Source of the DNA: a virus
Taxonomy: Duplodnaviria > Caudoviricetes
DNA length: 53,262 bases
IMG/VR virus record: IMGVR_UViG_3300048582_000146
Coordinates: 1-53,262 of that record
Strand: one strand, 5' to 3'
Each line of letters starts with the position of its first letter. The first letter of the stretch is position 1. The notes below the pieces were generated by a model. That model saw nothing but the letters and a program-made list of their open reading frames with translations. It was not told the origin of the DNA and searched no databases. This document shows, piece by piece, positions 8,844 to 49,693 of the stretch. The position numbers and the translations under genes were made by a program.

Positions 8844-8862
8844 ATTTAAAATCATTTTAAAT
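8844..8862. promoter_or_regulatory. Fur-box-like palindrome (2 mismatches) in the cI leader
   Basis: ATTTAAAATCATTTTAAAT. Confidence 0.4.
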
Positions 8863-8916
8863 TACATAATTATTATGTATTATGTTTTGTAGATACATAA
8901 CAGTTATGTATATTTG
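8863..8916 (+). promoter_or_regulatory. Early lytic promoter with two CI operators
   Basis: TTTG(8886)-N19-TATATTTG(8909); palindromes TACATAATTATTATGTA (8863-8879) and ATACATAACAGTTATGTAT (8893-8911). Confidence 0.85.
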
Positions 8917-8937
8917 TCCTGTACAAAAAGCAAGAAG

Positions 8938-8945
8938 CAAAAGTA
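8938..8945 (-). promoter_or_regulatory. Putative -7 element of the leftward cI promoter
   Basis: Reverse complement TACTTTTG matches TAnnTTTG. Confidence 0.55.
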
Positions 8946-8980
8946 TACTAAAAATTTATTGAAATTACGCGATTCTGTCA

Positions 8981-8999
8981 ATTTAGAATCATTATAAAT
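8981..8999. promoter_or_regulatory. Fur-box-like palindrome (1 mismatch)
   Basis: ATTTAGAATCATTATAAAT. Confidence 0.6.
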
Positions 9000-9010
9000 A
9001 AAATTTTAGA

Positions 9011-9209
9011 GTTGTAAGTTATTTGAAATCATGAGATTAACTGATGAGTATAGTCTGAATAACGGGCAGGGCAATGCGATAGATCACTACGTGTAGTGAT
9101 TCAATAGGTGGAACTCCTTTTGCGTAACTTAAAATGTGGAACGATACGGTATACGTAAGGTTGGTCTATAGCCACAATGGGCTGAATAATACATGTTGAT
9201 AATTACAAT
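9011..9209 (+). ncRNA. Putative ~200-nt multibranched structured RNA in the early leader
   Basis: Nested helices GTTGTAA/TTACAAT, CATG/CATG, AGATTAACT/GGTTGGTCT, GTATA/TATAC; hairpins GTCTG/CGGGC, ATCACTA/TAGTGAT, AGG/CCT, TAGCC/GGCTG; many G-U pairs. Confidence 0.65.
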
Positions 9210-9220
9210 ACCAAATATTA

Positions 9221-9313
9221 AGGCTATGGGTTTAACAACCTTTCTGCGAAAGCCTGAAAGATAAAATTAAAAACGCCATTGGATTAAGTTCTATGCTTCG
9301 ATGAAACAATGGC
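9221..9313 (+). ncRNA. Two further small structured RNA modules
   Basis: AGGCT/AGCCT three-way junction (9221-9255); GCCATTG/CAATGGC stem with GATT...GAAA internal loop (9275-9313). Confidence 0.45.
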
Positions 9314-9344
9314 ACTATTGTAAAACCTTTTAACCTAACTAAAA

Positions 9345-9581
9345 ATGATAGCAATTGATAAAAACATACCAATCCCTTCACGAGTAAGAAATAGGGTTTA
9401 TCCGCTTAACAAGATGGAAGTAGGTGATAGCTTCTTTAAAGAGATTGACGAAAACAAAAGTAAGCACTACGAAAAACAAAAAATTTATATGGCGGTTTGG
9501 AGGCACTGCCAAAACCATAGTAATAAAAAATTTACAACCGCATCTGAGGAAAATGGAGTAAGAGTTTGGAGAATTCAATAA
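9345..9581 (+). CDS. Small conserved phage protein, putative DNA-binding
   Basis: IDKNIPIP...YPLNKMEVGDSF...GVRVWR. Confidence 0.75.
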   Translation: MIAIDKNIPIPSRVRNRVYPLNKMEVGDSFFKEIDENKSKHYEKQKIYMAVWRHCQNHSNKKFTTASEENGVRVWRIQ

Positions 9582-9598
9582 TTAATAAATCAATAAAA

Positions 9599-9766: not shown

Positions 9767-9780
9767 AACCAATCACAATC

Positions 9781-10415: not shown

Positions 10416-10416
10416 A

Positions 10417-10439
10417 AAAACCGGCTCTACACCGGTTTT
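10417..10439 (+). terminator. Intrinsic terminator within the early operon
   Basis: AAAACCGG-N7-CCGGTTTT. Confidence 0.65.
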
Positions 10440-21349: not shown

Positions 21350-21757
21350 ATGAAATCAACAGAAGCATTTAAAACAGCAATTCAAAATCATTTGGACCAA
21401 CTAGCAGCAAAGGATCCTTTGTTTGCTGAAACATTAAAAAAGGAAAACAAAAACATTGATGATTGTGTGACCTACATTCTCAATGAAGTTCAAAAATCAG
21501 GAGTCAACGGATTTGAAGATTCTGAGATATATGGCATGGCTGTTCACTATTACGATGAAGATGATATTAAACCAGGAAGAAGAACGACTGCAACAGTGGT
21601 TGTAAATCATGCTGTTGAGCTTTCAGAAGCCGACAAAGAAAAAGCCAAGCAGGCAGCAATTGACAAGGTTATTGAAGAGGAAAAGGAAAAAATGAGAATG
21701 AAAAAACAACCTAAAAAACAGGATAAACCAAATTTGGAAATTGATTTATTCAGTTAG
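21350..21757 (+). CDS. PcfK-like / AcrIIA9-family protein
   Basis: DPLFA...KNIDDCVTYILNEV.KSG..GF.D.EIYGMAVHYYDEDDI...VVVNH. Confidence 0.88.
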   Translation: MKSTEAFKTAIQNHLDQLAAKDPLFAETLKKENKNIDDCVTYILNEVQKSGVNGFEDSEIYGMAVHYYDEDDIKPGRRTTATVVVNHAVELSEADKEKAKQAAIDKVIEEEKEKMRMKKQPKKQDKPNLEIDLFS

Positions 21758-21759
21758 TT

Positions 21760-23103
21760 ATGAAGCCAAAAACTAGACTGCAGGTTGAGGTTTGGAATCT
21801 TACAAATAAGATTGGAGAACCGAAAGAGCATGAGCCTTTCATGATTTCCAAACATGATTTTTATTATACTACGCATTACAAGAACCTGGTATGTTTGGAA
21901 TGTAATCACATGTGGAAACCGGACGGACAGCTCTGGCATAATGAATTAGTTGGAACGAAATGTCCATCATGCCAAAAGAAGTTGAAATACATAAAAATTC
22001 AAAACGGAGTGAGTGCTTCAAGAATATTAATGTTTTCGCAAGTTCTTACAGTAGATAGATTTCAAGTATTTAGATATTTTTCATGTTGGAAACACATGAC
22101 AAAAAAGAATGTGCCTCATTATTATTTTCGAGCATTGTTTGAAGAATGGAAAGATTTTGATAAAGATAAAAGGGTTATAGTTGGTAGAACCATTTCGTAT
22201 AGTGGTGATGGATTTAGCACAACAGATTATGAAGTACGGCATGTAATGCAATCAGGCTGGAGAGCTCCAACGTATGACACTCTTGCATCAGATTTTAATT
22301 TACCAAAACCGCAATTTTTACCACGCTTTCATAAGTACGGACTAAAAGATGATTTTCATAACTGCGATTATCGTTTTCTTTTGAAGCAACTTGAATTGTC
22401 ACCAAAGATTGAAACCCTTCTTAAGACCAGACAAAAGGAGTTACTATTTACGGCGGTTCATAAACAAAGTCATCACAATAGATTTTGGCCACAAATAAAA
22501 ATTGTGATCAGACACAAGTATAAGATTAAAGATGCCGGGTTATGGTATGATTATCTTGAGCTCCTTCAATTCTTCAATAAGGATTTACACAGTCCAAAAT
22601 ACATTTGTCCGGATAATTTGAAAAAAGAGCATGACCGTTATGTGGCCAAGAAAAGAATTGTCGAGAAAAGACAAAAGCTCGAGGCACAAAAAAACAAAAT
22701 GGTCACCGATCAGAAGAACTATGAAAAAGAAAAGTCAATCTACTTTGGTTTAGCATTCGAAGAAAATCAAATCAGAATTGAAGTGATTGATACAGTTGAA
22801 AAGGTTTTGGAGTACGGCGATAAATTCAAACACTGTATTTACACCAATTCCTATTACAAGAAAAAAGATTCTTTGCTCTTAGTTGCCTTCGCTGATCAGG
22901 AACCTGTAGAAACAATTGAATTATCACTCACCAACTTTAAAGTTCTTCAATCTCGAGGGTTGCAAAACGAGGCAAGTAAATTCAATTCCCAAATCTTAGA
23001 ACTCATTTCTAAAAATGCCGGTAAAATAAAAAGCATAAAACCAGTAAAACCAAAAAAATCAAAAAGTAACAATTTAATTCAAGCGTATGAAAATCACAAT
23101 TAG
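21760..23103 (+). CDS. PcfJ-like protein
   Basis: N-terminal CxxC pairs, WYDYL..L, P.NLK.EHD, G..FKHCI, TIE, Q.RG.QN; follows pcfK. Confidence 0.88.
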   Translation: MKPKTRLQVEVWNLTNKIGEPKEHEPFMISKHDFYYTTHYKNLVCLECNHMWKPDGQLWHNELVGTKCPSCQKKLKYIKIQNGVSASRILMFSQVLTVDRFQVFRYFSCWKHMTKKNVPHYYFRALFEEWKDFDKDKRVIVGRTISYSGDGFSTTDYEVRHVMQSGWRAPTYDTLASDFNLPKPQFLPRFHKYGLKDDFHNCDYRFLLKQLELSPKIETLLKTRQKELLFTAVHKQSHHNRFWPQIKIVIRHKYKIKDAGLWYDYLELLQFFNKDLHSPKYICPDNLKKEHDRYVAKKRIVEKRQKLEAQKNKMVTDQKNYEKEKSIYFGLAFEENQIRIEVIDTVEKVLEYGDKFKHCIYTNSYYKKKDSLLLVAFADQEPVETIELSLTNFKVLQSRGLQNEASKFNSQILELISKNAGKIKSIKPVKPKKSKSNNLIQAYENHN

Positions 23104-31822: not shown

Positions 31823-33298
31823 TTGCTAACAGAAGCTGAAATACTAGAACTTGAAACTCTTCTGAAAGAAAGAGAAATTGATATTAAACGTAAGCGATTA
31901 AAGACTATCGGTGAAGATACGAATCCAAACTACCAGCTTCTTTTTAATGCCATCAATGAGCAAAAGTATAATGAATTAGGCGAGTTAATTTCAGGGTGGC
32001 GTGGTTGTGCATTGGAGGGTTCCTCTCGTTCCGGCAAAACGTGGTCCGGTGTTGATATAATCGTATGGCTTGCTCTTTATTATGAGCCAAACGGATGTAC
32101 AATAAACATTTACCGGCAAACCTACAACGAATTTAAAACAACGCTTTATGATGATTTCAAACGCCGGCTTGATGATTATGGATTGCCAAATCCTTTTCAT
32201 ACAGCCAAAGAAATAAAAAGCTTCAAGATAGGCAAAACAACCATTTACTTTCTTGGTGATGGAAAACATGGTGGAGGTTGTGACTATGCTTTCTTTAATG
32301 AAATGATGTTCATTGAGCAGCATGTATTTGACCAAACAGAAATGCGTTGCCGTAAGTTTTGGTGGGCAGATTACAACCCATCAGTTACCGAGCACTGGTT
32401 CTTTGATAGAGTTTTGTCACGTCCTGATGTTGGGTTTTTGAAAACAGTATACCAGGATAACAAATACATTTCCGTTCAGGAGAAAAACAAAATACTTTCC
32501 TACGAACCATGGAAGCCCGGTTCATACATCGTCAAAGAAAGTGAATTGCTTTGTTACAATAAGCAAACCGGCAAGATTGAATTAGTAAGCAAAACCAATC
32601 AACCGCCACCTCATCCATCAAATATTGAGAATGGAACTGCCGATGAGTTCATGTGGAAGGTTTACGGTCTTGGATTGCGTGGTGCCATGAAAGGAGTGAT
32701 ATTCAATCACGTTACTTGGATTGATGAGTTTCCGGACATTGCCTACATTTTTACTAATGACTTTGGATTTACAACAGATCCAAACTCTTTTAATAAATAT
32801 GCTGAAGATGAACACAACATTTGGATTGAGCCTCTATGCTATGAACCAATTGAGACATCTGAAGAACTGATTGGTGTGATGGATGCTCATTCAGTAAAAA
32901 GAAATTCAGATGATTTTAATCTTGATGGTGATTTGGTTATTTGCGACAGCTCCGATAAGTACACCGGAGAAAACAAAGGAACGGTGGAAATGGTAAGAGC
33001 TTTGAAAAAAGCACTATTCAACGCTTCAAAGGTCAGTAAAACTAAATCGGTGATGTTCTGGTTGAACTCAATGAAGTCTAAAAAGATTCACATTGTAAAA
33101 AATCATCTATACAACCAGGTTAAAAAGGAAAAAGAAAACTACAGAATGCGAGAAATAAACGGCATAGCAATCAATCAACCAATTGATTTGTTTAACCACT
33201 TCTGGGATTCTTCAAGATATGGCCACATGGCTTATAATTCGCAAAACAGAGTACACAGAACAGAACAATCACTCCCTGAATTGGGCATAAACTATTAG
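31823..33298 (+). CDS. terL: Terminase large subunit
   Basis: Walker A GSSRSGKT, FFNE, DYNP, DFGFTTDP, NHFWDSSRY; TTG start. Confidence 0.93.
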   Translation: MLTEAEILELETLLKEREIDIKRKRLKTIGEDTNPNYQLLFNAINEQKYNELGELISGWRGCALEGSSRSGKTWSGVDIIVWLALYYEPNGCTINIYRQTYNEFKTTLYDDFKRRLDDYGLPNPFHTAKEIKSFKIGKTTIYFLGDGKHGGGCDYAFFNEMMFIEQHVFDQTEMRCRKFWWADYNPSVTEHWFFDRVLSRPDVGFLKTVYQDNKYISVQEKNKILSYEPWKPGSYIVKESELLCYNKQTGKIELVSKTNQPPPHPSNIENGTADEFMWKVYGLGLRGAMKGVIFNHVTWIDEFPDIAYIFTNDFGFTTDPNSFNKYAEDEHNIWIEPLCYEPIETSEELIGVMDAHSVKRNSDDFNLDGDLVICDSSDKYTGENKGTVEMVRALKKALFNASKVSKTKSVMFWLNSMKSKKIHIVKNHLYNQVKKEKENYRMREINGIAINQPIDLFNHFWDSSRYGHMAYNSQNRVHRTEQSLPELGINY

Positions 33299-33303
33299 AA
33301 AAC

Positions 33304-34704
33304 ATGGAAGAATTAGAAGTGTTATTGGCAGGACCGGCAGACAAGGCTATTAAAGTTTTGACTTCCCAAAAAAAAGATTCTGCAATCATTCAGAACTACA
33401 TCAAAGAGTTCAAAAATCAAGACAGAACCATCCGGGCTTCTCAGGTTGGCAGCATCCAAAAGGATAAAGCAGTAGGAAAGGGGGAAAATTCAAAAACAGT
33501 TAAGGCGATTCGCTCTATTGTCAATTATCAAAAGAAAATCGTTACTACTGCATGTGCTTTTGAGGTAGGAGAGCCCGTTACATTGGTTGCTGACAAACCA
33601 AACGATTTAACTGAAGAAGTTTTACGTCTTTGGGAAGATAACCGTATGGATGATAAAATTCAAAAGGCAAAAATCATACAAAAAAGCCACACAGAATGTG
33701 CGATTCATTTCTATATTCAGGAAACAATCAATGCTGAAGAGAAAAAAGTGAACGACATCAAATCTAAATTGCTAACAAACGAATTTGGAGTAATGTCACC
33801 GTATTTTGATGAAACGGGAGACATGATTGCTTTTACTTGGGCTTTCAGCGTAAAGAATTCAGAAGAAAAAACCATAAAACACGTATGGATTTGGACTGAT
33901 AAACTTTGCTATAAGTATTCTGATGAATCAGGAACTTTTACATTCGTTGATAATTTGCCTCATGGATTCAATAAAATTCCAATCGTTTACATTTCTCAGG
34001 ATTTCCCAGAATGGAATGAAGTAGTGAGCCTTATTGACCGTTACGAAACTGCACTTTCAAAACTTGGAGCAAGTAACGACTATTCAGGTTATCCATTATT
34101 GAAGTTGTACGGAGAGGTTAAATCAATGCCTGACCGTAACGATGACGGTAAGACTTTGAACTTCCCAATGAAAGAAGTTGACGATACCGGCAAAACAATT
34201 CACGGTGATGCTGAGTTCCTGACTAATTCAAACGCACCGGAAAGCGTTAAACTAGAAATGGAGACTTTGGAAAACTTGATTTTTGCATTGTCATCGACTC
34301 CCAACTTATCATTCGACAACATGAAGGGAAGCATTGGCAATATTTCAGGTGTTGCTTTAAAGTTACTTTTCTTAGATTCAATGATCAAGGCTAAGATGAA
34401 TGAAGGCGACAATAGAACGATGATTCAAAGAATAATCAAAATATTGATTTCAGGAATTGTAACCACTACTCAAACCAAGCTAAATACTCAATCAAGAGAA
34501 ACGGTTATAAAAGTTCAGTTCAATTCTATTCTTCCGGATGATTTGAAAGAGGCTGTTGATATTGCAAGTGCTGCGGTTAATGCAGGAATTATGTCTAAAA
34601 AAACAGCTGTTGAACACTTAGGCATGACCGATGATTCTGAAGAAGAATTAAACACAATCAATTCAGAGCAAACAGTAACTGAACCAACAAACCCAGAGCT
34701 ATGA
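33304..34704 (+). CDS. Portal protein (SPP1 gp6-like)
   Basis: NYQKKIV, PHGFNKIPIV, LIDRY, NISGVALK; follows terL. Confidence 0.9.
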   Translation: MEELEVLLAGPADKAIKVLTSQKKDSAIIQNYIKEFKNQDRTIRASQVGSIQKDKAVGKGENSKTVKAIRSIVNYQKKIVTTACAFEVGEPVTLVADKPNDLTEEVLRLWEDNRMDDKIQKAKIIQKSHTECAIHFYIQETINAEEKKVNDIKSKLLTNEFGVMSPYFDETGDMIAFTWAFSVKNSEEKTIKHVWIWTDKLCYKYSDESGTFTFVDNLPHGFNKIPIVYISQDFPEWNEVVSLIDRYETALSKLGASNDYSGYPLLKLYGEVKSMPDRNDDGKTLNFPMKEVDDTGKTIHGDAEFLTNSNAPESVKLEMETLENLIFALSSTPNLSFDNMKGSIGNISGVALKLLFLDSMIKAKMNEGDNRTMIQRIIKILISGIVTTTQTKLNTQSRETVIKVQFNSILPDDLKEAVDIASAAVNAGIMSKKTAVEHLGMTDDSEEELNTINSEQTVTEPTNPEL

Positions 34705-34889: not shown

Positions 34890-34919
34890 AAACCGCTCTC
34901 AAAAGGAGCGGTTTTTTTT
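34890..34919 (+). terminator. Intrinsic terminator
   Basis: AAACCGCTC/GAGCGGTTTTTTTT. Confidence 0.8.
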
Positions 34920-34933: not shown

Positions 34934-34976
34934 TATTTAGAATGATTCTAAATAGAATAAAATTTTATTACATTTG
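34934..34976 (+). promoter_or_regulatory. Capsid-operon promoter with a perfect Fur-box-like palindrome
   Basis: TATTTAGAATGATTCTAAATA covering the -33 position; TACATTTG at 34969. Confidence 0.75.
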
Positions 34977-35010: not shown

Positions 35011-35682
35011 ATGGCAGTTAAACCAGAAATTATTAAGGCTAGACTTAAGGCTTTGTTTCCTAAGGCTAACTTATCACAAAAAAGGTTAGACGCTTTAGCG
35101 GCTAAACTTGCTCCAATGCCGGCAGACAATGCAGATGATGCTGCGGTTGATGCTGTGTTGAACCAAGCGAATGACTTTATGTCTTTTGAAGAAATTGCAA
35201 AAGAAGATGATCGAGTAAGAACATTAGAGGCAAAAGCTAATCCAACACCCGCTCCTGCACCAGCACCTGAACCAACGCCTGCTCCAACTCCGGCACCTGC
35301 TCCTGCAAATCCGAATGATGATACACCGGCATGGGCAAAATCGCTGATTGAATCTAATCAGAAATTAACCGCTGATTTAGAGGCCATCAAAACCGGAAAG
35401 ATAACAGAAATAAAAAAGCAGACTGCACAGACTGTTTTTGAAGCTTCCGAAATTTTAAAGGGATTGAAGCCTGAAATCAAAACAAGCTGGCTTAACAGAA
35501 TTGACGTTAATGCTGAAACTCCTATTGAGGATCAGGTGAAAAGTCTTGAAACAGAATTTACAGAAATTCGGCAGGAAATTGCTAGTTCAACTAGATATGC
35601 CGGTGCTCCACCTTCTTTTTCAGATAACAATAACGCTCCTTCTGCCGATGATGTAAAAGCTGTTGTTGACGCTTTAATCTAG
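35011..35682 (+). CDS. Capsid scaffolding protein
   Basis: Helical, Pro-Ala linker, DDTPAWAK motif; upstream of the capsid genes. Confidence 0.75.
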   Translation: MAVKPEIIKARLKALFPKANLSQKRLDALAAKLAPMPADNADDAAVDAVLNQANDFMSFEEIAKEDDRVRTLEAKANPTPAPAPAPEPTPAPTPAPAPANPNDDTPAWAKSLIESNQKLTADLEAIKTGKITEIKKQTAQTVFEASEILKGLKPEIKTSWLNRIDVNAETPIEDQVKSLETEFTEIRQEIASSTRYAGAPPSFSDNNNAPSADDVKAVVDALI

Positions 35683-35706
35683 TAATTAACCCAAAAAAAA
35701 TAAATT

Positions 35707-36105
35707 ATGTCAGGTACAACTGCAAATTTACAAGACACACCCCAAAGTGTAGATACCAGCAACGACGGAATCGTTATTGTTGCGAATCTTGAAACTATTC
35801 CGGGTGGAAAGACATTAGATGTTACAGGTTTCGCTCCTGCCGTTATTCCGGCTGGTCACCTTGTAATTGAAGAAACTTCTACAGGAGTTTTAAAACCAAT
35901 GCCTGTTTCAGGAGCTGCTTACGGCTCTTTACCAGGCAGTCACACCTATAAAGGTGTTGTTGTTGCGAGCATTTTAACTGCAAAACCTTTTGCATCAGTA
36001 TTGGTGCGTGGTTCTGTAAACGGAAATGCCTCTACGTATGCTATCGCATCAGTTCTAACGGCTGTTAAAGCAGCTTTACCATTAATCAGATTTACAAAAG
36101 ACTAA
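35707..36105 (+). CDS. Head decoration protein
   Basis: Size and position between scaffold and capsid; IPGGKTLD...IPAG. Confidence 0.7.
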   Translation: MSGTTANLQDTPQSVDTSNDGIVIVANLETIPGGKTLDVTGFAPAVIPAGHLVIEETSTGVLKPMPVSGAAYGSLPGSHTYKGVVVASILTAKPFASVLVRGSVNGNASTYAIASVLTAVKAALPLIRFTKD

Positions 36106-36111
36106 TAGAAC

Positions 36112-37377
36112 ATGGAAAAATCATTATTTGTACAGTTTGCAGCTTTCTTTAAAGCAATTGCAAAAGACATTGTAGAGCGAGTTAATGGTAAAAAAACACC
36201 TTTAACCTATCTTCACAAGGAAATGTTGACTAAAGAATTGTCAACAGATTTGAAATGGCAAACCTTAAACGTTGACGGATCAGTAGTTTCTGCTGATGTT
36301 GTATCAATGGATTCAGCTTTACCATTGAAAAAGAGAGACTCATTCGGAACTGCTTCAGGAGACATTCCTAAGCTAGGGATGAAATTTGCTTTGAACGAGA
36401 AAACAATGTCAGAAATTGACGTTCTACAAGCTAGAAATGTGGAAAGCAAAGTATTAGTAGGTAAAATTTTTGCAGACACTTCCAAAGCTATGTTTGGTAT
36501 CTATGAGAAATTAGAATTCATGTTCTTACAAGCATTGTCAACAGGTGTAACCTTAGTTGATGATGATACAAATGTTGGAACTGGTATTCGTGTGGATTTT
36601 GGATATAAAAACGCTAATAAGTTTGGAGCAGTTTTACCGTGGTCAGACACTAATGCAAAACCAATCGATGATATTAAAAGAGTTGTAAGAGAGGCTAAAG
36701 CCAAAGGAAACACTCCAACAATATTGATGATGGATGAATCCACTTTTGATTCGTTAGCTGCTAATCAACAAACACGTGAGCAATATGCATTCAGCCAAAA
36801 CTTTGTTGGGTCACAAATTCCAGTGCCTGATTTAGAGCAAGTGAACGCGATGTTGCAAAAACGTTACAAGCTAACAATTATAGTAGTTGATAGAAGTGTT
36901 GTAACAGAGCGTGACGGTGTAAGAACAGTTCAAACTCCATGGGCTGCTAACAAAATTGTTTTCTTAGAAAGCACTAAAGTTGGTAAATTGGTTTATGGTA
37001 TTTTGGCTGAGGAAACACGTCAAAACAAAGCGGTCATGTATGAGAAAGCAGATGACTTTATTTTGCTTAAAAAATGGCATTCTCCGGAACCATTTGCAGA
37101 ATACACTTCTTCTCAGGCTTTAGTATTACCGGTAATCAACAATGTAGACAGCATCTATATCTTAGATGTTCAAGAAGCTACTTTAGACGTACAAACTGAG
37201 GGAGACGCTAACTTCCTATACAAAACAGTAAGTAAAACTAAAGTTGCGGTAATAGCTGCCTTGAAATTGGCTGAGCCTAAAACCAAGCTTACAGTTGCTT
37301 CAACAGATGCTGCAATCTTAAATGCTATCAACGCATTATCAGATGAGCAAGTATTGATTTTTGAAGCTAATATTTAA
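36112..37377 (+). CDS. Major capsid protein (lambda gpE-like)
   Basis: ADVVSMDS.LPLK.R, G.IPK, QALSTG, RVDFG, W....AKPIDDI. Confidence 0.9.
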   Translation: MEKSLFVQFAAFFKAIAKDIVERVNGKKTPLTYLHKEMLTKELSTDLKWQTLNVDGSVVSADVVSMDSALPLKKRDSFGTASGDIPKLGMKFALNEKTMSEIDVLQARNVESKVLVGKIFADTSKAMFGIYEKLEFMFLQALSTGVTLVDDDTNVGTGIRVDFGYKNANKFGAVLPWSDTNAKPIDDIKRVVREAKAKGNTPTILMMDESTFDSLAANQQTREQYAFSQNFVGSQIPVPDLEQVNAMLQKRYKLTIIVVDRSVVTERDGVRTVQTPWAANKIVFLESTKVGKLVYGILAEETRQNKAVMYEKADDFILLKKWHSPEPFAEYTSSQALVLPVINNVDSIYILDVQEATLDVQTEGDANFLYKTVSKTKVAVIAALKLAEPKTKLTVASTDAAILNAINALSDEQVLIFEANI

Positions 37378-40756: not shown

Positions 40757-43700
40757 ATGTCAACAGGTCAAATTACACGCAAAGAAATAATTGAAGATGA
40801 AGCTTTACGATGGGGCGAAGATTACGCAAAGCTCATGGAAAAAGCGATCGGAAAAAATAAAGAATTTGTTGAATCTATTTTGGCATTGAACGAGGCAAAC
40901 AAACAATTGAGAGCTTCCGGTAACCAAAAGGAATTGGCAGAAAATCAACGATTGGCAAATGTGCAAGGAGAAAAGGCTTTAGGTATTTGGAAGGAGCAGA
41001 ACCAATTAGAATTGGCTTTAATTTCTACCAAAAGAAAGAATCTTTTAGCAACGGAATCAACAAATAGAGCACTTGTAAAAGAACGCACTGCACTTGCTGA
41101 AACCAATAAGGAAATCAAAGCACAAGCACGTGAGCAACTTGGCTTGATTGGTTCTTATGAAAAGCTAAATAAGTCGCGTAACGATGCTCAAAAGCGTTTG
41201 GGTGATTTGCTTTCTGCTGAAAAGAAATCAACTGCAGAAGTAATCAAGGCTCAATTGGAATTTAATAAGCTTGATGCTCGAGTAAAGGCCGTTGATGCAT
41301 CGCTGAAAAACTATTCTAAGAACATTGGTAATTATCAAAGTGCCTTTCAAGGCTTGGGAGGAACACTACGGGATTTAACCTCTGCTTTTGGTATAGTTAC
41401 CGGTATTGCTTTGTTTGGCCAGATCGTTGGCGATATCACTTCAACCATCAGAGAATTTGACCGTCAATTAATTGCTGTTGGAAAAACAACTAACATTTCC
41501 GGTAAAGAATTGGAGCAATTTGGACGTGAAGTAGTTCAATTGGGTAGTGATTTAGATGGTGTTTCCGTTCAAGGATTATTGTCTTCTGCGGAGGTTGCCG
41601 GGCAGTTAGGAGTAAAAGGAACAGAAAACATTTTGAAGTTTTCAACAGCTATTGAGAAACTTAAATTAACTTCGGATATTATCACAGAAGAGCAAGTACA
41701 ATCATTTGCTCAATTCATCGAGGTATCTGCTGATAGCTTTGAGAATGCTGATAAATTGGCATCTGTAATCACTCAGTTAGGCAACAACTTTGCCACTACT
41801 GAAGCTCAAATTCTTTCCAATGCAACAGAGATTCAAAAAGGTATTGCGGTTTACGCAACCAGTGCTGAGGGTGTTTTAGGTCTTGGAGCTGCCACTGCAT
41901 CGTTGGGATCAGAAGCGGAAAGCTCACGAAGTGCGATTCAATCCACTTTTGCAGTAATAAATAATGCTATTGCCACCGGTAAAAATCTTCAAAACGTTTT
42001 AAAATTAACCGGGTTAACGCAAGCAGAACTATCCAAACAATTCAACAAAGATGCAACGGGTGTATTTGTGAAGTTTGTGGGTGGACTTGCCAAAGCCAAA
42101 GAAGAAGGGCAAAATCTTACTTTAGTTTTGAATGATTTAGACATCACCGAAAAAAGAGCTTTCACGGTTGTAGGTTCTTTGGCTGCTAATTATGATGTGC
42201 TTGCAAATTCTGTAGCAACGGCCACAGAAGAATACAAAGTAAATGAAGCATTAAATAGAGAAGTTGTAGCTGCTTCCGAATCAATCAATTCTATATTAAG
42301 CGACATAAACGACCAATGGGAGGCCTTTGTTTTATCAACCAATGATGCTAATGATGGTACCAAAATAATCACTAATTCTTTAAAGTTCCTTCGCGACAAT
42401 TTGCAAACCATTATTGCTAATTTCCTGAAATACGGAGCTGTTGTTTTGACTTTTGTTGGAGTAATGCGAATTGTAAATTTTACAATGGGAGCATGGACAG
42501 CATTACAAGGAGCTGCAACTGCTGCACAAATAAACTTTGCATTAGCTACCGGAATTGGAACTAAATCAATCCTTGCACAAGCTGCAGCAGTTCGAGCAGC
42601 TACAACTGCTCAAACAGGTTTAAATGTAGCAATGACCGCAACGCCTTGGGGAATTGTTTTAGCAGCTCTTGCGGCTGCCGTTATCGCTTACAAGGTTTTC
42701 AATGATGAGTTAAACGAAACGGAAATCAGAACCAATGCCATCAAGAAAGCAGTTGAAACATTAGGAGAAACAGAAGCGTATTATGCCGAACAAAGAACCA
42801 AAGGCCGTGACAATAATTTCAAGCAAATTGAAGATGAGATTGCACTTAGAAAAGCTCAAGGCGAAAACTCGGATAAGTTAGACAAAGAAGAAATTGCTAG
42901 AAAAAAAGCAGTTACAGAAGCTCAATTAAAAGTGTTTTTAGATTTAAAAGCTGTTGAAATCGAGCGGACCAAAACACAAATTGAGGAATCTAACAAACGT
43001 GTTGCTGTTGCTCAAAATGAAGTAAATTCAATTAATAAGTTTGCTTTATCAAATCCTTTTGGAGAATCAAATAAAGAGAAGGAACAGCGATTAATTCAAT
43101 TAAAAGCAGAGAATGATGCACGTCGTGCCACTTTGCAAGAACTCAATAAATTAACTGTAGAAGAATCTAAAAAATTAAACAAGGTTCTTGAGGATTTAGA
43201 CAAACAAAAGGCTTTGAAAGATGCTGAGACAGTATCAGAAACCAACGAAAAATTAAAACGTGAAGCGGAAAAAAGAAGAAAAGAATACCTTCAAAACCTT
43301 CAAGAACAGGACAACGCTGAATTTAAATTACGTGAGTTCCGTTTAAAGAATTTAGCTGAAATTGATCGCCAATATGCCGATAGTGATTTAAATCCATTCG
43401 ACCAACGCCTTGACGCCTTGCTTGAAGCAAATCAATTGGAATTATCAATTTCAAGAGAAACAGCCGAACAAAAATTAAAAGACATTTCCCGTTACACAGA
43501 TTCAGTTCGTGATTTGAGTAATGAGGAAATACGGATTTTATTGGAAGGCGGTACCATTAAAAAAGAATTGAACAACCAGGAGAAATTAGTTTTAGAACAA
43601 TTTGAAGCCGATAAAACTAAGATTGTTGTTAAAGGAAATGAAGACCGTGAAAAGTTGGTGGATAATCAGGTGAAGCTTCTTCAGAAAGGAATTACCAGCA

Positions 43701-44914
43701 ACTTGCTTACTGATGAAACAGAGCTAAACAAACAATTGACCGCTCAAAATAAACTTTACAAAGCCAATTTGCAAATCATTAAAGATTTCTATGCACAAAA
43801 AGAGGCGTTGGATGGGTTTAATCTTGCTGACTATGATGCGATGCAAAAAGAAATGCAGGACCTGACAACGGCCAACGAGCAGGAAATGTTTGAGATTAAG
43901 AAGGAATTCGCTTTGAAAGGCTTAAAGATGCAGATTTCTGCAATTGAAGCATTATTAAAGGCACAGGATGCTTTACCTGAAAATGAGCGTATCTCAGCGG
44001 AGAAAAGAGCCGAAATCGAAAATCAACTTTCTAAGGCAAAGCTTGCAATGTCAGAGGAAGAATTGAAGAAGTATGAAGAAAATGCAGATGACCGGGTTAA
44101 TATTGAAGAAGAAACTACTGCATTAATCAAGCAACTTTCACAAGATTTATACAATGCTTTAGGAAATTTTGTCAATGCAATATTTGAGGCTAAAATAGCC
44201 AACATTGATAATGAAATCGCTGCAAATGATGAGTATTATGCCAAACAAATTGAGCTGGCCGGAAATGATCAACGTCAAAAGGATTTATTGACACAAGAAT
44301 CAGAAAAGAAACGTAAAAAACTAGAAGAAGAAAAACGAAAAGAGCAACGCAAGCAAGCCATTTTTAATAAAGCCACTGCAATTGCAGAAATAGGAATCAA
44401 TACTGCTGCCGGTATCATGGCTACAATCAAAAATTTAGGATTGCCTTTTGCAACACCTTTTGTTATTGCAACGGGTTTACTCGGAGCTCTTCAAGTAGCT
44501 ACCGTTTTGGCCACTCCAATTCCTAAGTATGAAAAAGGAACTAAGAACCACAAAGGAGGTTTTGCAGAAGTAGGAGAGGTACGTCCGGAGGTAATTATCG
44601 AGCCCGGTAAAAAACCTTATGTTGTCGATAAGCCAAGTATTTTGAATCTGAAAAGAGGAACTGAAGTTGTTCCATCGATTCCGGAGTATGAGGCAATGAT
44701 GCGAGCTTCTTATATGGCATCATTAGATATGCAAGGCCAAAAATTAAGCTCGGCCACAAGTGAAATGATTTTTGATAGCAGATTCAATCAAGAAATTTTG
44801 GAAGAATTAAAGTTAAACAGAAAAGCTACTGAGCGTCAAAGAACTTCTTTTAACTTAAAAAATGAGGTTAATTTAGGTTACGAGATTTGGAGATTAAAAA
44901 ACATAAATTGGTAA
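40757..44914 (+). CDS. Tail tape measure protein
   Basis: 1385 aa; RNIGNY-like motif, FD..L..V.KT TP901-type core, coiled coils, PIPKYEKGT C-terminus. Confidence 0.93.
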   Translation: MSTGQITRKEIIEDEALRWGEDYAKLMEKAIGKNKEFVESILALNEANKQLRASGNQKELAENQRLANVQGEKALGIWKEQNQLELALISTKRKNLLATESTNRALVKERTALAETNKEIKAQAREQLGLIGSYEKLNKSRNDAQKRLGDLLSAEKKSTAEVIKAQLEFNKLDARVKAVDASLKNYSKNIGNYQSAFQGLGGTLRDLTSAFGIVTGIALFGQIVGDITSTIREFDRQLIAVGKTTNISGKELEQFGREVVQLGSDLDGVSVQGLLSSAEVAGQLGVKGTENILKFSTAIEKLKLTSDIITEEQVQSFAQFIEVSADSFENADKLASVITQLGNNFATTEAQILSNATEIQKGIAVYATSAEGVLGLGAATASLGSEAESSRSAIQSTFAVINNAIATGKNLQNVLKLTGLTQAELSKQFNKDATGVFVKFVGGLAKAKEEGQNLTLVLNDLDITEKRAFTVVGSLAANYDVLANSVATATEEYKVNEALNREVVAASESINSILSDINDQWEAFVLSTNDANDGTKIITNSLKFLRDNLQTIIANFLKYGAVVLTFVGVMRIVNFTMGAWTALQGAATAAQINFALATGIGTKSILAQAAAVRAATTAQTGLNVAMTATPWGIVLAALAAAVIAYKVFNDELNETEIRTNAIKKAVETLGETEAYYAEQRTKGRDNNFKQIEDEIALRKAQGENSDKLDKEEIARKKAVTEAQLKVFLDLKAVEIERTKTQIEESNKRVAVAQNEVNSINKFALSNPFGESNKEKEQRLIQLKAENDARRATLQELNKLTVEESKKLNKVLEDLDKQKALKDAETVSETNEKLKREAEKRRKEYLQNLQEQDNAEFKLREFRLKNLAEIDRQYADSDLNPFDQRLDALLEANQLELSISRETAEQKLKDISRYTDSVRDLSNEEIRILLEGGTIKKELNNQEKLVLEQFEADKTKIVVKGNEDREKLVDNQVKLLQKGITSNLLTDETELNKQLTAQNKLYKANLQIIKDFYAQKEALDGFNLADYDAMQKEMQDLTTANEQEMFEIKKEFALKGLKMQISAIEALLKAQDALPENERISAEKRAEIENQLSKAKLAMSEEELKKYEENADDRVNIEEETTALIKQLSQDLYNALGNFVNAIFEAKIANIDNEIAANDEYYAKQIELAGNDQRQKDLLTQESEKKRKKLEEEKRKEQRKQAIFNKATAIAEIGINTAAGIMATIKNLGLPFATPFVIATGLLGALQVATVLATPIPKYEKGTKNHKGGFAEVGEVRPEVIIEPGKKPYVVDKPSILNLKRGTEVVPSIPEYEAMMRASYMASLDMQGQKLSSATSEMIFDSRFNQEILEELKLNRKATERQRTSFNLKNEVNLGYEIWRLKNINW

Positions 44915-47137: not shown

Positions 47138-47141
47138 AACT

Positions 47142-49142
47142 ATGTTTAGTAAAATAACAATCACATTTAACGAGGAGTTTACTGTTGGTAAAACCTTGAC
47201 TATCGATGCTTCAAACGGAGGTTTAGATACTATTATGCTATCAAATTTTGTAACTTTAAGAATAGGACTTTATCAAGTTACGAGCAACATTAGAATTTTA
47301 GAAGACGAGGACTATGTTGTAGGAGCGAGTACTGCACAAAATTTCAGAACTGCTTTTTTATTGGATTATCCGGGATTATATTCTGTTGTAAGAACAGCAA
47401 ATGTTCTAGTTATCGAGGCTTTAATTGATTCAATAATTTTCAATAGCGGAAGCTCAACCGGTGATGCTGATTTTGTGATAGAGAACTTTGCCTCTGATCC
47501 TTTCACGCTAACTTCAATCACAACTTCTACAGCATCATTAAATCCATGTGCTAATGTAAAAGTATCGATTCTTTTTTCAGAAGCTCCAACAAAGGTAACT
47601 TTACCTTTTCTCATAAATGACAATGAAGATAACCCAGTTGAGTTTGACTGGCCAAGAGGTACAACATTTAATTTAGATGCTGAATTAACACCCGAACAAA
47701 AGGTGATTCGTTCAAATGTCCGAGTACCTCCATTATTAAATTCTGAGGGTGAAATTTCAATTATTCAAACACCAAACGGAGGAACTTTATCTGCAGCTAT
47801 TTTAAATTCAACAATTTTAGTTGTTGAGTTTTCTTTAGATGGCATAAATTGGCAATCATCAAACGTGTTTTCAGGATTAGAAGCCGGAGAATATACTTTA
47901 CGCATTCGCGACCAGTTTGGATGCGTGAAACAACGTACAAACATAATTGTAACCGAGGTTGGAGAATTAAATGGCAATCAACCATTTTTCTATATCAGCA
48001 AATCAAATTCAATAAGATATGCTAATCGAATTATTTTTGGAGAATCAGCCAATTATAAGAACGATGAAAACACATTAAGCTGTGAGGCTGATGTTGAGGT
48101 TCCTTACATGGAAATACAACCCTTTCAATCAGCTGACGTGGTAACTACACAATTCAAATCGAATTATTCAGAGAATTTGGCAAATGTAGTTCTTGCCAAT
48201 GGTTCTGAGGTTTCAATTCCGGTAATTCAAAAGACCTCCAACATTGGATTAAAAGACAAACGCGATGCACGAAAATTCAATTTAGGAGGTGGAAAAATAG
48301 GAATTTATTTCACTTCAGGAAATAAGTACAATTACGACACCAATGCAGTAGAATCAACCTATGAATTGAATGGAAGATTACCGGCGTTTGCGAAGGCAGG
48401 AAATTACATTTTCTTTGATTTGAATTGGTATTTAATTAGCGGTGTTTTGTATGTAGAAGAAAAAAACGCCGATGTAATTGAAGTGATTGGTGTTTATGAA
48501 GGTTCAGATGTGGCCACTATTGTAAGTTGTGTTTACAACCTTTTCAACTACGAAGTGTATGAATTTGCCATCGATATGGTAGATTATTTGAACGAGCAAA
48601 TTAGAGTTCGAATTAATGCGAATGATACAGTTTTCCAAGATTTAGTTTTCCTTTCGGAAAGGATAGAAATAAAAGTTAGACATGAAAAGACAGTTGAGGT
48701 GTTGTATTACAACGAAGAAAACACAGATATTTTCTATCAGACAGGCATCCGCAATAAAATTAGAATGTTTTTAAACCGTAAAAATTCAATTGTAGAGGCC
48801 GAAAACGAACTGCATAAAATGGACAATAGCACCATAGTTTTAAGCGGAAAACAAATTGAGGGCGATGAGTTTGAATTTGAGCCCGTATCAAAAGAAATCA
48901 TGCGAAAGCTTTGTCAGGCATTGGCTCATAAGTTTTTGTTTATAGATGGGCAGCAATATGTTTTAGATGGCTCTCCGGATGTTGAAGGTCCGATTGAACG
49001 CTCAAACCTACACGTTGTAAAAGCCAAGCTATTAAAATCAGGCGAACCATTCAGAAACAATGGAAACGAATTTGGATTTGATACAACCAATATTGATATT
49101 CCGGGATTAATTGAAACGGAAGATGGATTTGTGAAGTACTAA
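47142..49142 (+). CDS. Tail protein with Ig-like module
   Basis: EFSLDGINWQSSNVFSGL.AGEYT..IRD..GC module. Confidence 0.65.
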   Translation: MFSKITITFNEEFTVGKTLTIDASNGGLDTIMLSNFVTLRIGLYQVTSNIRILEDEDYVVGASTAQNFRTAFLLDYPGLYSVVRTANVLVIEALIDSIIFNSGSSTGDADFVIENFASDPFTLTSITTSTASLNPCANVKVSILFSEAPTKVTLPFLINDNEDNPVEFDWPRGTTFNLDAELTPEQKVIRSNVRVPPLLNSEGEISIIQTPNGGTLSAAILNSTILVVEFSLDGINWQSSNVFSGLEAGEYTLRIRDQFGCVKQRTNIIVTEVGELNGNQPFFYISKSNSIRYANRIIFGESANYKNDENTLSCEADVEVPYMEIQPFQSADVVTTQFKSNYSENLANVVLANGSEVSIPVIQKTSNIGLKDKRDARKFNLGGGKIGIYFTSGNKYNYDTNAVESTYELNGRLPAFAKAGNYIFFDLNWYLISGVLYVEEKNADVIEVIGVYEGSDVATIVSCVYNLFNYEVYEFAIDMVDYLNEQIRVRINANDTVFQDLVFLSERIEIKVRHEKTVEVLYYNEENTDIFYQTGIRNKIRMFLNRKNSIVEAENELHKMDNSTIVLSGKQIEGDEFEFEPVSKEIMRKLCQALAHKFLFIDGQQYVLDGSPDVEGPIERSNLHVVKAKLLKSGEPFRNNGNEFGFDTTNIDIPGLIETEDGFVKY

Positions 49143-49170
49143 TTCTTATTAAGGCGAATTCGCCACAATT

Positions 49171-49198
49171 AAAAAGCCTCTAAATAGAGGCTTTTTTT
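49171..49198. terminator. Bidirectional terminator
   Basis: AAAAAGCCTCT/AGAGGCTTTTTTT. Confidence 0.8.
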
Positions 49199-49259
49199 AA
49201 ACGTACTGCGTAAGCTCGCCTTTATTTCACGTGATTAGCTGACCACGTGCGGACGTTTT

Positions 49260-49436
49260 TTATTGTATGGATACATTTTTTGTGGTTGGAATAGCAATAA
49301 TCATTTCCTTTTGAAGTTCCAATTCTCGTATTTTTTTTATAGAATCAAAGTAGTTTTCAAGAGTTATATTTTGCACCACTTCTTTTTGAGATTCAAATAC
49401 TTTTTTGGCTCTTGATAATTTTTCCTCTATTCTCAC
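49260..49436 (-). CDS. 58-aa hypothetical protein (not in ORF track)
   Basis: GTG start overlaps the TGA of the upstream minus-strand gene; MRIEEKLSRAKK...NVSIQ. Confidence 0.5.
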   Translation of the reverse strand: MRIEEKLSRAKKVFESQKEVVQNITLENYFDSIKKIRELELQKEMIIAIPTTKNVSIQ

Positions 49437-49621
49437 TTCTTCAAGTTTTTAAATTCCTCGCCATTCACATGAACGCTTCTATTGTCATAATGATGATGAT
49501 GCACGCTTTTATCTACAAAAGTATTACTGTCATTGTGTTTAGGGAATAAAGCATTTCCAATCGCTTTAAATAGCAACCAGCAACCTCCAACGCAAACAAC
49601 AAAGAGAATGAATATCAACAT
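49433..49621 (-). CDS. Small single-TM protein with His cluster (moron)
   Basis: N-terminal TM, VHHHHYDNRSVH; own -7 element TAAATTTG at 49633-49626. Confidence 0.7.
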   Translation of the reverse strand: MLIFILFVVCVGGCWLLFKAIGNALFPKHNDSNTFVDKSVHHHHYDNRSVHVNGEEFKNLKK

Positions 49622-49651
49622 GATGCAAATTTATAAAATATTACATTAGAA

Positions 49652-49693
49652 TTATTTAGAATGATTCTAAATAACAAATTATTACTACATTTG
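49652..49693 (+). promoter_or_regulatory. Receptor-binding/lysis operon promoter with a perfect Fur-box-like palindrome
   Basis: TTATTTAGAATGATTCTAAATAA; TACATTTG at 49686. Confidence 0.75.

Follow-up and report, generated by a model that had tools for sequence, protein, structure and literature searches.

Four copies of one palindrome lie in the genome of a temperate Flavobacterium phage, two beside the lysis-lysogeny switch and two at late promoters. The question they raise is which protein reads them and with what effect. In the window, which here means the whole 53,262-nt stretch of DNA that was analysed, ATTTAGAATnATTCTAAAT has exactly 4 matches at 3 or fewer mismatches; dinucleotide shuffles of the window contain a mean of 0.25, and none of 100 contains 4. 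A pattern search bears out the copies listed in the initial annotation, which are perfect at 34935 and 49654 and carry 1 mismatch at 8981 and 2 at 8844:

8844 to 8862, no strand: Fur-type palindrome with 2 symmetric mismatches, itself a perfect palindrome, just 5' of the repressor start codon
8981 to 8999, no strand: Fur-type palindrome with 1 mismatch, within the leader of the early rightward transcript and 5' of the leftward promoter
34935 to 34953, no strand: perfect Fur-type palindrome covering the -33 region of the capsid-operon promoter
49654 to 49672, no strand: perfect Fur-type palindrome between divergent promoters, with a small gene for a His-rich membrane protein to the left and the distal late operon to the right

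In the ORF map all four are intergenic, with the caveat that the 8844 copy overlaps the first ATG of the ORF at 8208-8855. The earlier view that all four stand at promoters is right for both perfect late copies. It needs amending for the other two: the 8844 copy has the switch operators on one side and the start codon of the repressor gene on the other, and the 8981 copy lies about 60 nt 3' of the rightward early promoter and about 58 nt 5' of the inferred start of the leftward promoter (-7 box at 8938-8945). Judged from sequence, the four are candidate operator sites for a Fur-type winged-helix dimer.

Identity of the box and its use in host genomes

The initial annotation equated the motif with the Fur box proposed for Riemerella anatipestifer, correctly so: Guo et al. 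(2017, PMC5609570) print ATTTAGAATTATTCTAAAT as the predicted box, a 19-bp inverted repeat identical to the phage motif. That box was predicted in silico, the abstract quotes the E. coli consensus instead, and the EMSA described there used promoter fragments, not isolated boxes (PMC5609570). The phage sites differ from the Riemerella consensus at 0, 0, 1 and 2 positions, so that two of them agree at all 18 specified positions. Sequence comparison thus supports the motif as a Flavobacteriales Fur-type box. Its 7-1-7 core, TTAGAATnATTCTAA, has what we take to be the Fur-family layout known from B. subtilis. The Bacteroidetes LexA (SOS) box was considered and rejected: the non-canonical LexA boxes given in PMC8565304 are GGA-N5-TCC or CTAA-N5-TTAG palindromes, and the phage motif, TTAG-N7-CTAA, has the opposite order and a different spacing.

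The host-genome scan suggested with the initial annotation, run on five Flavobacteriia genomes at up to 2 mismatches with a reversed-pattern control, finds near-matches adjoining genes for TonB-dependent receptors, feoB, Fe-S assembly and hemA. Matches outnumber those of the control both in three genomes that carry related prophages (12 vs 3, 7 vs 1 and 10 vs 0) and in two MAGs (21 vs 2 and 9 vs 2); the genomes scanned are those of hosts of related prophages. Neighbours are iron- or haem-linked at 14 of 29 host loci and have no evident iron link at the other 15. TonB-dependent receptors account for six loci, and the remaining linked neighbours are FeoB, Fe-S assembly, hemA (two loci), a PLP decarboxylase, a DUF4198 protein and multihaem cytochromes (two loci). 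Peroxide-stress genes were not seen among the 40 neighbours scanned. Each host encodes 2-3 Fur-family proteins, and the recognition helix of the main Fur is invariant in 36 Flavobacterium Fur sequences.

The known Riemerella-type sites belong to host iron genes, where in most cases the box lies over the -7 box or 3' of it. Host TonB-receptor promoters have two boxes, whereas each phage late promoter has a single perfect box that replaces the -33 element; most host sites are imperfect relative to the consensus, and the phage late sites are perfect. The phage also differs from known host usage in having two more boxes, which flank the lysis-lysogeny switch.

Late promoters and their operons

The following late features surround the two perfect palindromes:

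34890 to 34914, + strand: intrinsic terminator closing the packaging operon, a 10-bp stem followed by a T run, just 5' of the capsid promoter
34969 to 34976, + strand: -7 box TACATTTG of the capsid-operon promoter, without TTG at -33
35011 to 37377, + strand: first genes of the capsid operon, for a phrog_5824 protein, a phrog_38330 protein and the major head protein
49433 to 49621, - strand: gene pointing away from the distal late operon; its 62-aa product, a predicted membrane protein, has a run of four His (HHHH)
49626 to 49633, - strand: -7 box TAAATTTG of the promoter that serves 49433-49621 leftward; homologues have the identical 34-nt spacing
49686 to 49693, + strand: -7 box TACATTTG of the distal late promoter
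49716 to 53262, + strand: start of the distal late operon, which runs on over the circular junction to about 6092

As claimed, the perfect palindromes stand 15 nt (capsid) and 13 nt (distal) 5' of TACATTTG, and the capsid copy (34935-34953) occupies the -33 region. TAnnTTTG by itself is not enriched in the window (73 found vs 76.7 expected), and the reading of these elements as -7 boxes therefore rests on position and conservation; in relatives, the capsid-promoter -7 box is kept 13-16 nt 3' of the palindrome. Neither late promoter has a -33 TTG. Thus, both appear to be activator-dependent.

The major head protein (36112-37377) matches phrog_29 at 1.7e-49. Among the products of the distal operon are a holin (468-974), an endolysin (958-1542) and a protein with a weak tail-fibre match (2054-4192). 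Terminator prediction for the + strand gave no call within 49700-51000 or 1-6096; from the sigma-70 promoter scan, the terminator calls alone were used, promoter calls being uninformative for Bacteroidota. The lysis genes thus appear to be part of the distal Fur-boxed operon. The label of receptor-binding operon given earlier is right in part: the operon after 49654 encodes proteins without an assigned function and the lysis cassette as well as the weak tail-fibre match. A box at 30483 in Arctus_1, a syntenic Leeuwenhoekiella phage, has the same layout as that at 49654, and the gene following it is annotated as a tail fibre. The 62-aa HHHH protein has six homologues in the same position and no PHROG match.

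The lysis-lysogeny switch

The two imperfect palindromes flank a compact switch:

8208 to 8831, - strand: CI-like repressor with an S24 peptidase domain (phrog_4, 3.6e-18)
8864 to 8880 and 8893 to 8911, no strand: two TACATAA/TTATGTA-type palindromes, probably the repressor's own operators
8909 to 8916, + strand: -7 box TATATTTG of the rightward early promoter, with a -33 TTTG at 8886-8889, conserved in relatives
8938 to 8945, - strand: -7 box TACTTTTG of the repressor promoter, which reads leftward and faces the early promoter

The repressor start is placed at 8831 or 8828 from family matches that begin at residues 8-10 of the 215-aa ORF, and relatives carry CAAATGTA as the equivalent of the leftward -7 box. 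The TACATAA-type palindromes are distinct from the Fur-type palindrome. In five related switch regions a Fur-type palindrome lies 1-11 nt 5' of the repressor ATG, while the operators differ and a repressor homologue is evident in only one. Two of the five also share the 8981-type placement, with the pair 159 and 161 bp apart vs 137 bp here. The Fur-type switch sites of relatives thus hold their position beside non-homologous repressors, and this constancy, together with the TACATAA-type palindrome that fills the -33/-7 interval of the early promoter and the two further Fur-type copies 26 and 41 kb away, led us to reject CI/Cro operators as the identity of the Fur-type sites. The leader at 9000-9345 has no Rfam match at E values up to 1 and a fold z-score of -1.05.

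Conservation of the box among related viruses

Conservation in relatives, another check proposed at the outset, was examined at the capsid promoter by counting boxes (3 mismatches at most) in the interval from -1117 to -1185 relative to the major-head gene. Of 46 related loci, 27 retain the box, some with major-head identity as low as 46%, while its flanks drift: the commonest base has a frequency of 0.97 in the motif vs 0.58 in the left flank. Eleven related virus records, and the prophages of three host genomes as well, have a pair of late sites 10.3-18.2 kb apart, and the reversed control has no match in any of the 29 virus records. By this pattern of conservation, the phage palindromes are under selection.

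Beyond these relatives, at least 120 IMG/VR contigs contain the 19-mer without a mismatch, compared with 2 for the reversed control, so that phages of Bacteroidota in general may share the phenomenon. A Fur domain was found in none of 50 virus records with the exact box (16 of them at least 90% complete), and the phage module described below, the N-module, in just 1 of 30. A host factor would be the simplest common binder.

Fur-like proteins of sister phages and the N-module

The earlier statement that the phage has no Fur-like gene stands as far as the Pfam FUR family is concerned: PF01475 has 0 matches in six frames of the window, and the same search recovers, as a positive control, the Fur-like gene of Freya at 32.1 bits. 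The Polaribacter phages Freya and Danklef have Fur-type boxes at three late promoters and, adjoining their terminase genes and next to terS, a gene annotated in GenBank (Freya_1, Danklef_1) as a "Ferric uptake regulator family protein". Its recognition helix is that of the main host Fur, unlike those of the other host paralogues. In this protein a Fur winged helix is followed by the N-module: the ~40 residues at the C terminus of the protein share homology with the start of a small protein of the window (E 5e-9):

31204 to 31560, + strand: small protein in which the N-module stands alone, just 5' of the large terminase gene

The N-module, the first ~40 residues of this product, is thus fused to Fur-type winged helices in sister phages. 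A phmmer search of the window with Freya gp09 finds the N-module only. No published function was found for the Freya/Danklef protein, and the text available of PMC8776804 has 0 occurrences of "ferric uptake".

The 31204-31560 product matches no Pfam or PHROG family. A homologue search gives 4 close matches, none functionally named, and a representative search gives 113, mostly proteins of 60-70 aa that align to the second half; no fused form is evident among the 113. A single-sequence AlphaFold model is unusable (pLDDT 30.4). Mimicry of the Fur dimerisation domain by the N-module was considered and dropped: the two align in MAFFT, but hhalign, with a probability of 2.6%, does not support it. 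A complex prediction for host Fur with N-module residues 1-48, made for one genome, lends weak support to a pairing (partner pLDDT at least 72; runs agreeing in at least 95% of contacts). Its median score of 0.33, with a best control of 0.01, falls in the range up to 0.60, where the mark used is reached by 7 of 80 solved complexes and by both passing mismatches, compared with 58 of the 80 complexes and 2 of 110 mismatched pairs overall.

At 11 of the 46 related loci a shorter palindrome, ATTTAG-N-CTAAAT (class 2), takes the place of the Fur-type box (class 1) at the equivalent two late promoters. The late-promoter pairs comprise 11 of class 1, 5 of class 2 and none that are mixed. In host genomes, prophages apart, the class-2 palindrome occurs at control level only, and by this comparison the class-2 operator is private to phages. 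Class-2 phages retain class-1-like sites in the switch; it is the late sites that have changed. Five class-2 records encode a domain-swapped protein with the N-module ahead of a Fur-like winged helix. A strict link between this fused protein and the class-2 palindrome was rejected: the protein is present in 5 of 9 class-2 virus records (the module stands alone in three others and is absent from one), and the five, being 84-90% identical, amount to about one event. The 115-aa protein matches no Pfam family, and a profile search of PDB sequences gives nothing below E 0.3. The 12 best Foldseek matches of its AlphaFold model (pLDDT 59.6) are all Fur-family chains, at E 0.4-1.3, which is suggestive only of a Fur-family fold. 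A class-2 profile spanning both domains matches the window only in the N-module part, at positions 3-32.

Host Fur as the most likely reader of the phage operators

Because the phage encodes no Fur domain, the host's main Fur is the most likely protein to bind the phage boxes, and we hold this to be somewhat better than an even bet. The two perfect boxes would then stand in for the -33 element of both late promoters, and the two imperfect boxes would flank the face-to-face promoters of the lysis-lysogeny switch. Given these positions, late transcription, and perhaps the switch, would be set by the occupancy of metal-loaded Fur. The explanation infers both that Fur binds the boxes and what the binding does.

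If Fur does bind, we lean, at about even chances, toward co-activation, in which Fur would provide DNA binding and the 31204-31560 product the signal specific to the phage. Plain repression that is lifted when iron runs short, the simple reading in which Fur-Fe represses and iron limitation induces, would be a little below even. That reading is weakened because the late promoters, without a -33 TTG, resemble activator-dependent ones, and because the distal operon apparently includes the holin and endolysin, whose derepression by iron starvation alone would kill lysogens. Features of the phage family weaken it further: sister phages encode Fur-derived DNA-binding proteins at the usual late-activator locus, some of them use a private palindrome at both late promoters, and this phage retains the module of those proteins that does not bind DNA.

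A more specific and tentative proposal, which we consider possible but doubtful, is that flavobacterial siphophages share a modular Fur-operator late switch. A Fur-type winged-helix dimer would be seated where the -33 element is missing, and it is through the ~40-residue module that the phage would act on this dimer. The module would lie behind the Fur winged helix in Freya and Danklef and serve canonical Fur boxes; in the five class-2 records it would lie in front, with half-sites 6 bp closer and a private operator. In this phage, where it stands alone and the late boxes are perfect host Fur boxes, the module would recruit host Fur or convert it into the late activator. Virion production and lysis would need metal-loaded Fur, and the two switch boxes would tie the lysis-lysogeny choice to the same signal as the late genes.

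Other readers of the palindromes

The strongest rival to host Fur, although we think it unlikely, is an unrecognised phage-encoded DNA-binding protein, a dedicated late regulator that may fall outside the Pfam Fur family. The identity with the host box would then come from a captured Fur domain or from competition with host Fur, not from iron sensing. Freya and Danklef do encode a Fur winged helix plus N-module beside terS, five related records combine an N-module and a Fur-like winged helix with private palindromes at both late promoters, and since these class-2 phages have their own Fur-like binder, a phage-encoded binder may be the family norm. The class-2 115-aa protein escapes Pfam, so divergent binders can be missed. 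Each late-promoter pair also keeps to one palindrome class, and the perfect consensus of the late sites is typical of a dedicated regulator. Nevertheless, PF01475 finds nothing in the window, Freya gp09 and the class-2 profile find the N-module only, and diverse, unrelated box-bearing records lack a Fur domain (0/50) and almost always the N-module (1/30).

A second rival, which we rate improbable, puts another member of the host Fur family, a PerR- or Zur-like paralogue, at some sites or at all four, and above all at the switch pair, so that the signal would be peroxide or another metal and not iron. Hosts have the paralogues to do so, and the switch sites vary at the G/C position, with TTAAAAT and TTATAAT half-sites here and in relatives. 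These half-sites resemble what we take to be the B. subtilis PerR box. Because class-2 phages keep class-1-like switch sites and changed their late sites only, switch and late sites may have different readers. However, the recognition helix of the other host paralogues differs from that of the main Fur and of the phage Fur-like proteins, and the host genes adjoining the motif are iron- or haem-linked, with no peroxide-stress gene among the 40 neighbours scanned.

That the palindromes are AT-rich promoter architecture (a UP-like or cruciform element) or chance, and not protein operators, is very improbable: the sites are AT-rich within AT-rich intergenic DNA and TAnnTTTG alone is not enriched, but the shuffles, the reversed control, the conserved motif columns between drifting flanks and the identical motif at host iron genes all speak against it.

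Comparison with known systems

Borrowing of LexA by phages is known. The tectivirus GIL01 is reported to have host LexA boxes in its early and late promoters, where a small phage protein, gp7, cooperates with LexA, and its gp6, a truncated phage LexA homologue, to turn on the late promoter from a position that overlaps the -35 element (PMC6182141, PMC4551915). The likeness is that of a temperate phage with the boxes of a host global regulator in its promoters. The difference is that there the regulator is LexA and the signal DNA damage, whereas here the candidate is Fur alongside the phage's own CI-type repressor. Candidate counterparts of the truncated homologue gp6 are found in sister phages and are absent from the window. 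If the modular proposal is true, the late circuit would be a Fur-based counterpart of LexA/gp7/gp6. Freya and Danklef resemble this phage in their Fur-type palindromes at late promoters and in a syntenic tail module, but encode their own Fur winged helix.

Host metal regulators also act on phage toxin genes, Fur at stx1 and DtxR at corynephage tox. These, too, are boxes for a host iron regulator on phage DNA, but each serves a single cargo gene and not virion promoters or a switch. Precedent for a small partner that alters the hold of Fur on DNA comes from YlaN/Fpa in S. aureus (PMC11559061) and YdiV in E. coli (PMC7515728), both of them cellular and not phage proteins. The N-module proteins and Freya gp09 share the gene position of known late activators, and their function is suggested by position only. 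Those activators, RinA, ArpU and Alt, are encoded just upstream of terS in temperate siphophages; no sequence relationship between them and the N-module proteins was found.

A literature search covering few subscription journals found no report of Fur boxes at virion promoters together with the lysis-lysogeny switch, nor of phage-encoded Fur derivatives. Should late transcription be gated by host Fur, the timing of bursts and the behaviour of prophages in Flavobacteriia would be set by the supply of iron. These bacteria are among the main consumers of carbon from algal blooms, and iron often limits their growth. Each of the three protein architectures goes with a palindrome class of its own, and comparing them amounts to a natural experiment on domain order vs half-site spacing. 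Cultured systems are represented by the Polaribacter phages Freya and Danklef, the Leeuwenhoekiella phage Arctus_1 and the prophage of F. cupreum CCM 8825.

The phage and its genes

The record is complete at 53,262 bp and carries a 127-bp terminal repeat, and thus represents a circular assembly. The phage is a temperate siphovirus of Flavobacteriia, whose recognizable genes include the following.

468-974, holin
958-1542, endolysin
6121-7269, minus strand, integrase
8208-8855, minus strand, CI-like S24 repressor
31823-33298, large terminase
33304-34704, portal
36112-37377, major head protein (phrog_29, 1.7e-49)
40757-44914, tape-measure protein

Genomes and MAGs of Flavobacterium encode relatives of the major head protein, as does one Aquimarina genome; forty more come from IMG/VR loci. 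Related prophages include those of F. cupreum CCM 8825 and Flavobacterium sp. 1355. A tRNA-like gene of 114 nt (30861-30974) matches the full Rfam tRNA model at 49 bits and is not called by ARAGORN; it is probably interrupted by an intron or by some 40 inserted nucleotides. The PcfK-like and PcfJ-like genes (21350-23103) are shared with the Polaribacter phages Freya_1 and Danklef_1 at 69-70% and 36-37% identity, far closer than most other shared genes.

Fur-type palindromes at the switch and late promoters

The initial annotation had named four sites of a 19-bp palindrome (class 1), two at the lysis-lysogeny switch, one at the capsid promoter and one at the distal late promoter. A scan of the window returns exactly these four; the mean over shuffled sequences is 0.25, and none of 100 shuffles contains four.

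8844-8862, left switch palindrome
8981-8999, right switch palindrome
34935-34953, palindrome of the capsid promoter
49654-49672, palindrome of the distal late promoter

The two perfect copies, at the capsid and distal late promoters, precede TACATTTG by 15 and 13 nt, as claimed, and the Riemerella Fur box named in that annotation agrees with the one in PMC5609570, where the box is a RegPredict prediction and EMSA was performed on four promoter fragments. We read the palindromes as operators for Fur-type winged helices.

Conservation in related phages, proposed as a check, is borne out. The capsid-promoter motif, with up to 3 mismatches, is found at -1117 to -1185 from the head gene in 27 of 46 related loci, a set that includes duplicates or near-duplicates (L125/L136/L137, L130/L152, L126/L164, L127/L128, L147/L148, L150/L151 and L154/L156), and it is retained down to 46% head-protein identity. 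Across 22 distinct 104-nt segments, the mean top-base frequency is 0.97 in the 18 specified motif columns versus 0.58 in the left flank and 0.69 in the spacer. A second late site lies 10.3-18.2 kb from the first in 11 related virus records and three prophages, and the reversed motif pattern, used as a control, gives no match in any of 29 virus records.

The cultured Leeuwenhoekiella phage Arctus_1 has the same layout: one box at the start of the S24 repressor, another before the portal region, and a third 13 nt before the -7 box of an annotated tail-fibre gene, accompanied by a small divergent gene. In Freya_1 and Danklef_1, three late promoters have the box: those ahead of the portal gene, of the tail genes and of a tail protein gene. 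Synteny puts the third of the Arctus_1 boxes, and its counterpart in Freya_1 and Danklef_1, right behind a homologue of the window's gene 47142-49142.

Late promoters

A strong terminator (34890-34914) stands just ahead of the capsid promoter; therefore, the capsid operon needs a promoter of its own. The TTG at -33 is absent from both late promoters and from those of every relative, its place being taken by the right arm of the palindrome. Host Fur-box promoters that were inspected have the -33 TTG in 4 of 6 cases; in these the box overlaps the -7 box or comes after it. The distal operon extends across the junction to about 6092 and includes the holin and endolysin genes; no plus-strand terminator was called within it in the parts scanned.

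Divergent from this operon is a gene (49433-49621, minus strand) for a predicted membrane protein of 62 residues with an HHHH run. Its -7 box is only about 4 nt before the ATG, so its mRNA would be nearly leaderless. Six homologues occupy the same position in other contigs, and the protein may have to do with lysis or represent a metal-binding moron.

The lysis-lysogeny switch

The anatomy of the switch, as inferred from sequence, comprises these elements.

8864-8880, TACATAA-type palindrome, upstream of the early promoter
8893-8911, TACATAA-type palindrome, overlapping the early promoter
8886-8889 (-33 TTTG) and 8909-8916 (-7 TATATTTG), plus strand, putative rightward early promoter
8938-8945, minus strand, putative leftward -7 box, opposing the early promoter

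The TACATAA-type palindromes look like the repressor's own operators. The centres of the two Fur-type sites are 137 bp apart, and the promoter positions would place each site about 58-69 bp upstream of one predicted start and about 59-79 bp downstream of the other. Among five related switch regions, a Fur-type palindrome is consistently found 1-11 nt upstream of the repressor start codon, and two retain a second copy 159-161 bp away. The operators differ among these regions, and a homologue of the window repressor is seen in only one of the five.

The early and repressor promoters (8864-8945) apparently point towards each other, their starts separated by about 10 bp; in this they resemble those of coliphage 186, which are also face to face. 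Between the right palindrome and the first early ORF lies an ORF-free leader of about 340 nt (9000-9345), which has no Rfam match and a fold z-score of -1.05; its GGGCAGGGCAATGC block recurs at the same place in the related loci L245 and L246.

The motif in host genomes

The further proposal, that the motif would lie upstream of host TonB and iron genes, is borne out qualitatively. With up to 2 mismatches, the three genomes with related prophages contain 12, 7 and 10 matches versus 3, 1 and 0 for the reversed control, and the top-scoring matches are the prophage sites themselves. Two MAGs give 21 versus 2 and 9 versus 2. In a survey of 40 adjoining proteins at 29 loci, prophages excluded, iron- or haem-linked neighbours, multihaem cytochromes among them, are present at 14 loci; the other 15 have no evident iron link (ankyrin, GidB, desaturase, ClpB, GyrA, NqrA and EngA, for example). 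TonB-dependent receptors adjoin the motif at six of the 14 loci, two of them with double boxes; FeoB, an Fe-S assembly protein and DUF4198 are also neighbours within the 14. The motif at hemA and a divergent AraC-type gene is at orthologous sites in all three genomes, and the sites at a PLP decarboxylase are orthologous too. These neighbours form the profile of an iron regulon, a qualitative one because sites were picked by closeness to the consensus.

At the double-box receptor promoters, L217 (G033:C42) and L234 (G036:C76), the boxes are 62-67 bp apart; one precedes the -7 box by about 28 nt and the other follows it closely.

Each host has 2-3 Fur-family genes. Among 36 Flavobacterium sequences of the main Fur, identity is 86-93% and the recognition helix does not vary.

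Phage Fur-like proteins and a second palindrome

In Freya_1 and Danklef_1, the gene directly before terS is annotated as "ferric uptake regulator family protein". Pfam FUR matches residues 23-97 of this protein, gp09, the winged helix, at 32.4 bits; its recognition helix agrees with that of the main host Fur and not with those of the other host paralogues. At its C-terminus, ~40 residues share homology with the beginning of the window protein 31204-31560 (51% identity, E 5e-9). Of 30 related records, 22 encode this N-module a short way ahead of the large terminase gene. The window protein and its relatives consist of two modules of ~55 residues, each also found as a stand-alone small protein; in class-2 relatives the second has another genome position.

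Class 2 is the palindrome ATTTAG-N-CTAAAT, found at the capsid promoter in 11 of the 46 loci. It has the outer half-sites of class 1 and lacks the inner 6 bp, and occurs in two copies per phage at late-promoter spacing. In host genomes it is at control level, prophages excepted, and five class-1 records examined contain none. No record mixes the classes (11 class-1 and 5 class-2 pairs), and class-2 phages retain class-1-like sites in the switch. The Aquimarina genome G085 has a second class-2 pair (C2:658910 and C2:674578, 15.7 kb apart), which probably marks a further prophage of this type.

A 115-residue protein encoded in five class-2 records is, in our reading, the N-module with a Fur-like winged helix behind it. 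A profile made only from these five proteins matches the host Fur DNA-binding domain (E 1.4e-3 among 18,895 ORFs) and, with the order exchanged, both domains of Freya gp09 (E 1.5e-9); host Fur is also matched by BLASTP, at E 7e-4. Foldseek with a low-confidence model returns Fur-family chains as 12 of 12 best matches, at E of only 0.4-1.3, and Pfam and PDB sequence searches give no match. The fusion is missing from four class-2 records, and the five that exist are closely related; therefore, the covariation amounts to about one event. A phage with its own Fur-type helix can, these sequences suggest, use canonical or private boxes.

What binds, and to what effect

Since the window phage encodes no Fur-type winged helix, host Fur would, on balance, be the binder. 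A phage protein that escaped detection is a possible alternative, and the perfect consensus of the phage sites suits a dedicated regulator. With host Fur as the binder, we lean towards activation of the late promoters, the N-module protein acting as its partner, over plain repression, because the -33 element is missing, the boxed operon contains lysis genes, and N-module genes sit at a late-activator-like position. A fourth ground is a parallel in the tectivirus GIL01, in which, according to PMC6182141, LexA-gp7 represses the late promoter and a truncated LexA homologue, bound over the -35 element, activates it. A complex predicted between host Fur and the N-module encoded in the same genome lends weak support: the median score is 0.33 (best control 0.01), with partner pLDDT of at least 72 and runs agreeing in at least 95% of contacts. 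Of 80 solved complexes, 58 reach the mark, as do 2 of 110 mismatched pairs; at scores of 0.60 or below, it is reached by only 7 of the 80 and by both passing mismatches. According to the prediction tool itself, a pass of this sort is wrong in the majority of cases, save where the pairing was likely beforehand.

The arrangement would be a case of phage co-option of a host global regulator, a known kind. Literature searches gave no account of Fur boxes at the structural promoters of a phage, nor of Fur derivatives from phages, and "ferric uptake" does not occur in the accessible part of the Freya paper (PMC8776804).

Breadth among viral contigs

The 19-mer is present without mismatch in at least 120 IMG/VR contigs, and the reversed control in 2. 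Relatives of the window phage account for about 20 of the 126 sites listed, and the others adjoin many unrelated genes. None of 50 motif-bearing records searched, 16 of them at least 90% complete, has a Fur domain. The N-module is present in only 1 of 30 unrelated motif-bearing records; thus, the partner idea cannot be general, and host Fur binding could be. Matches of 24-35 nt to the palindrome region, at 86-96% identity, also occur in 15 records of Prevotella Lak megaphages.
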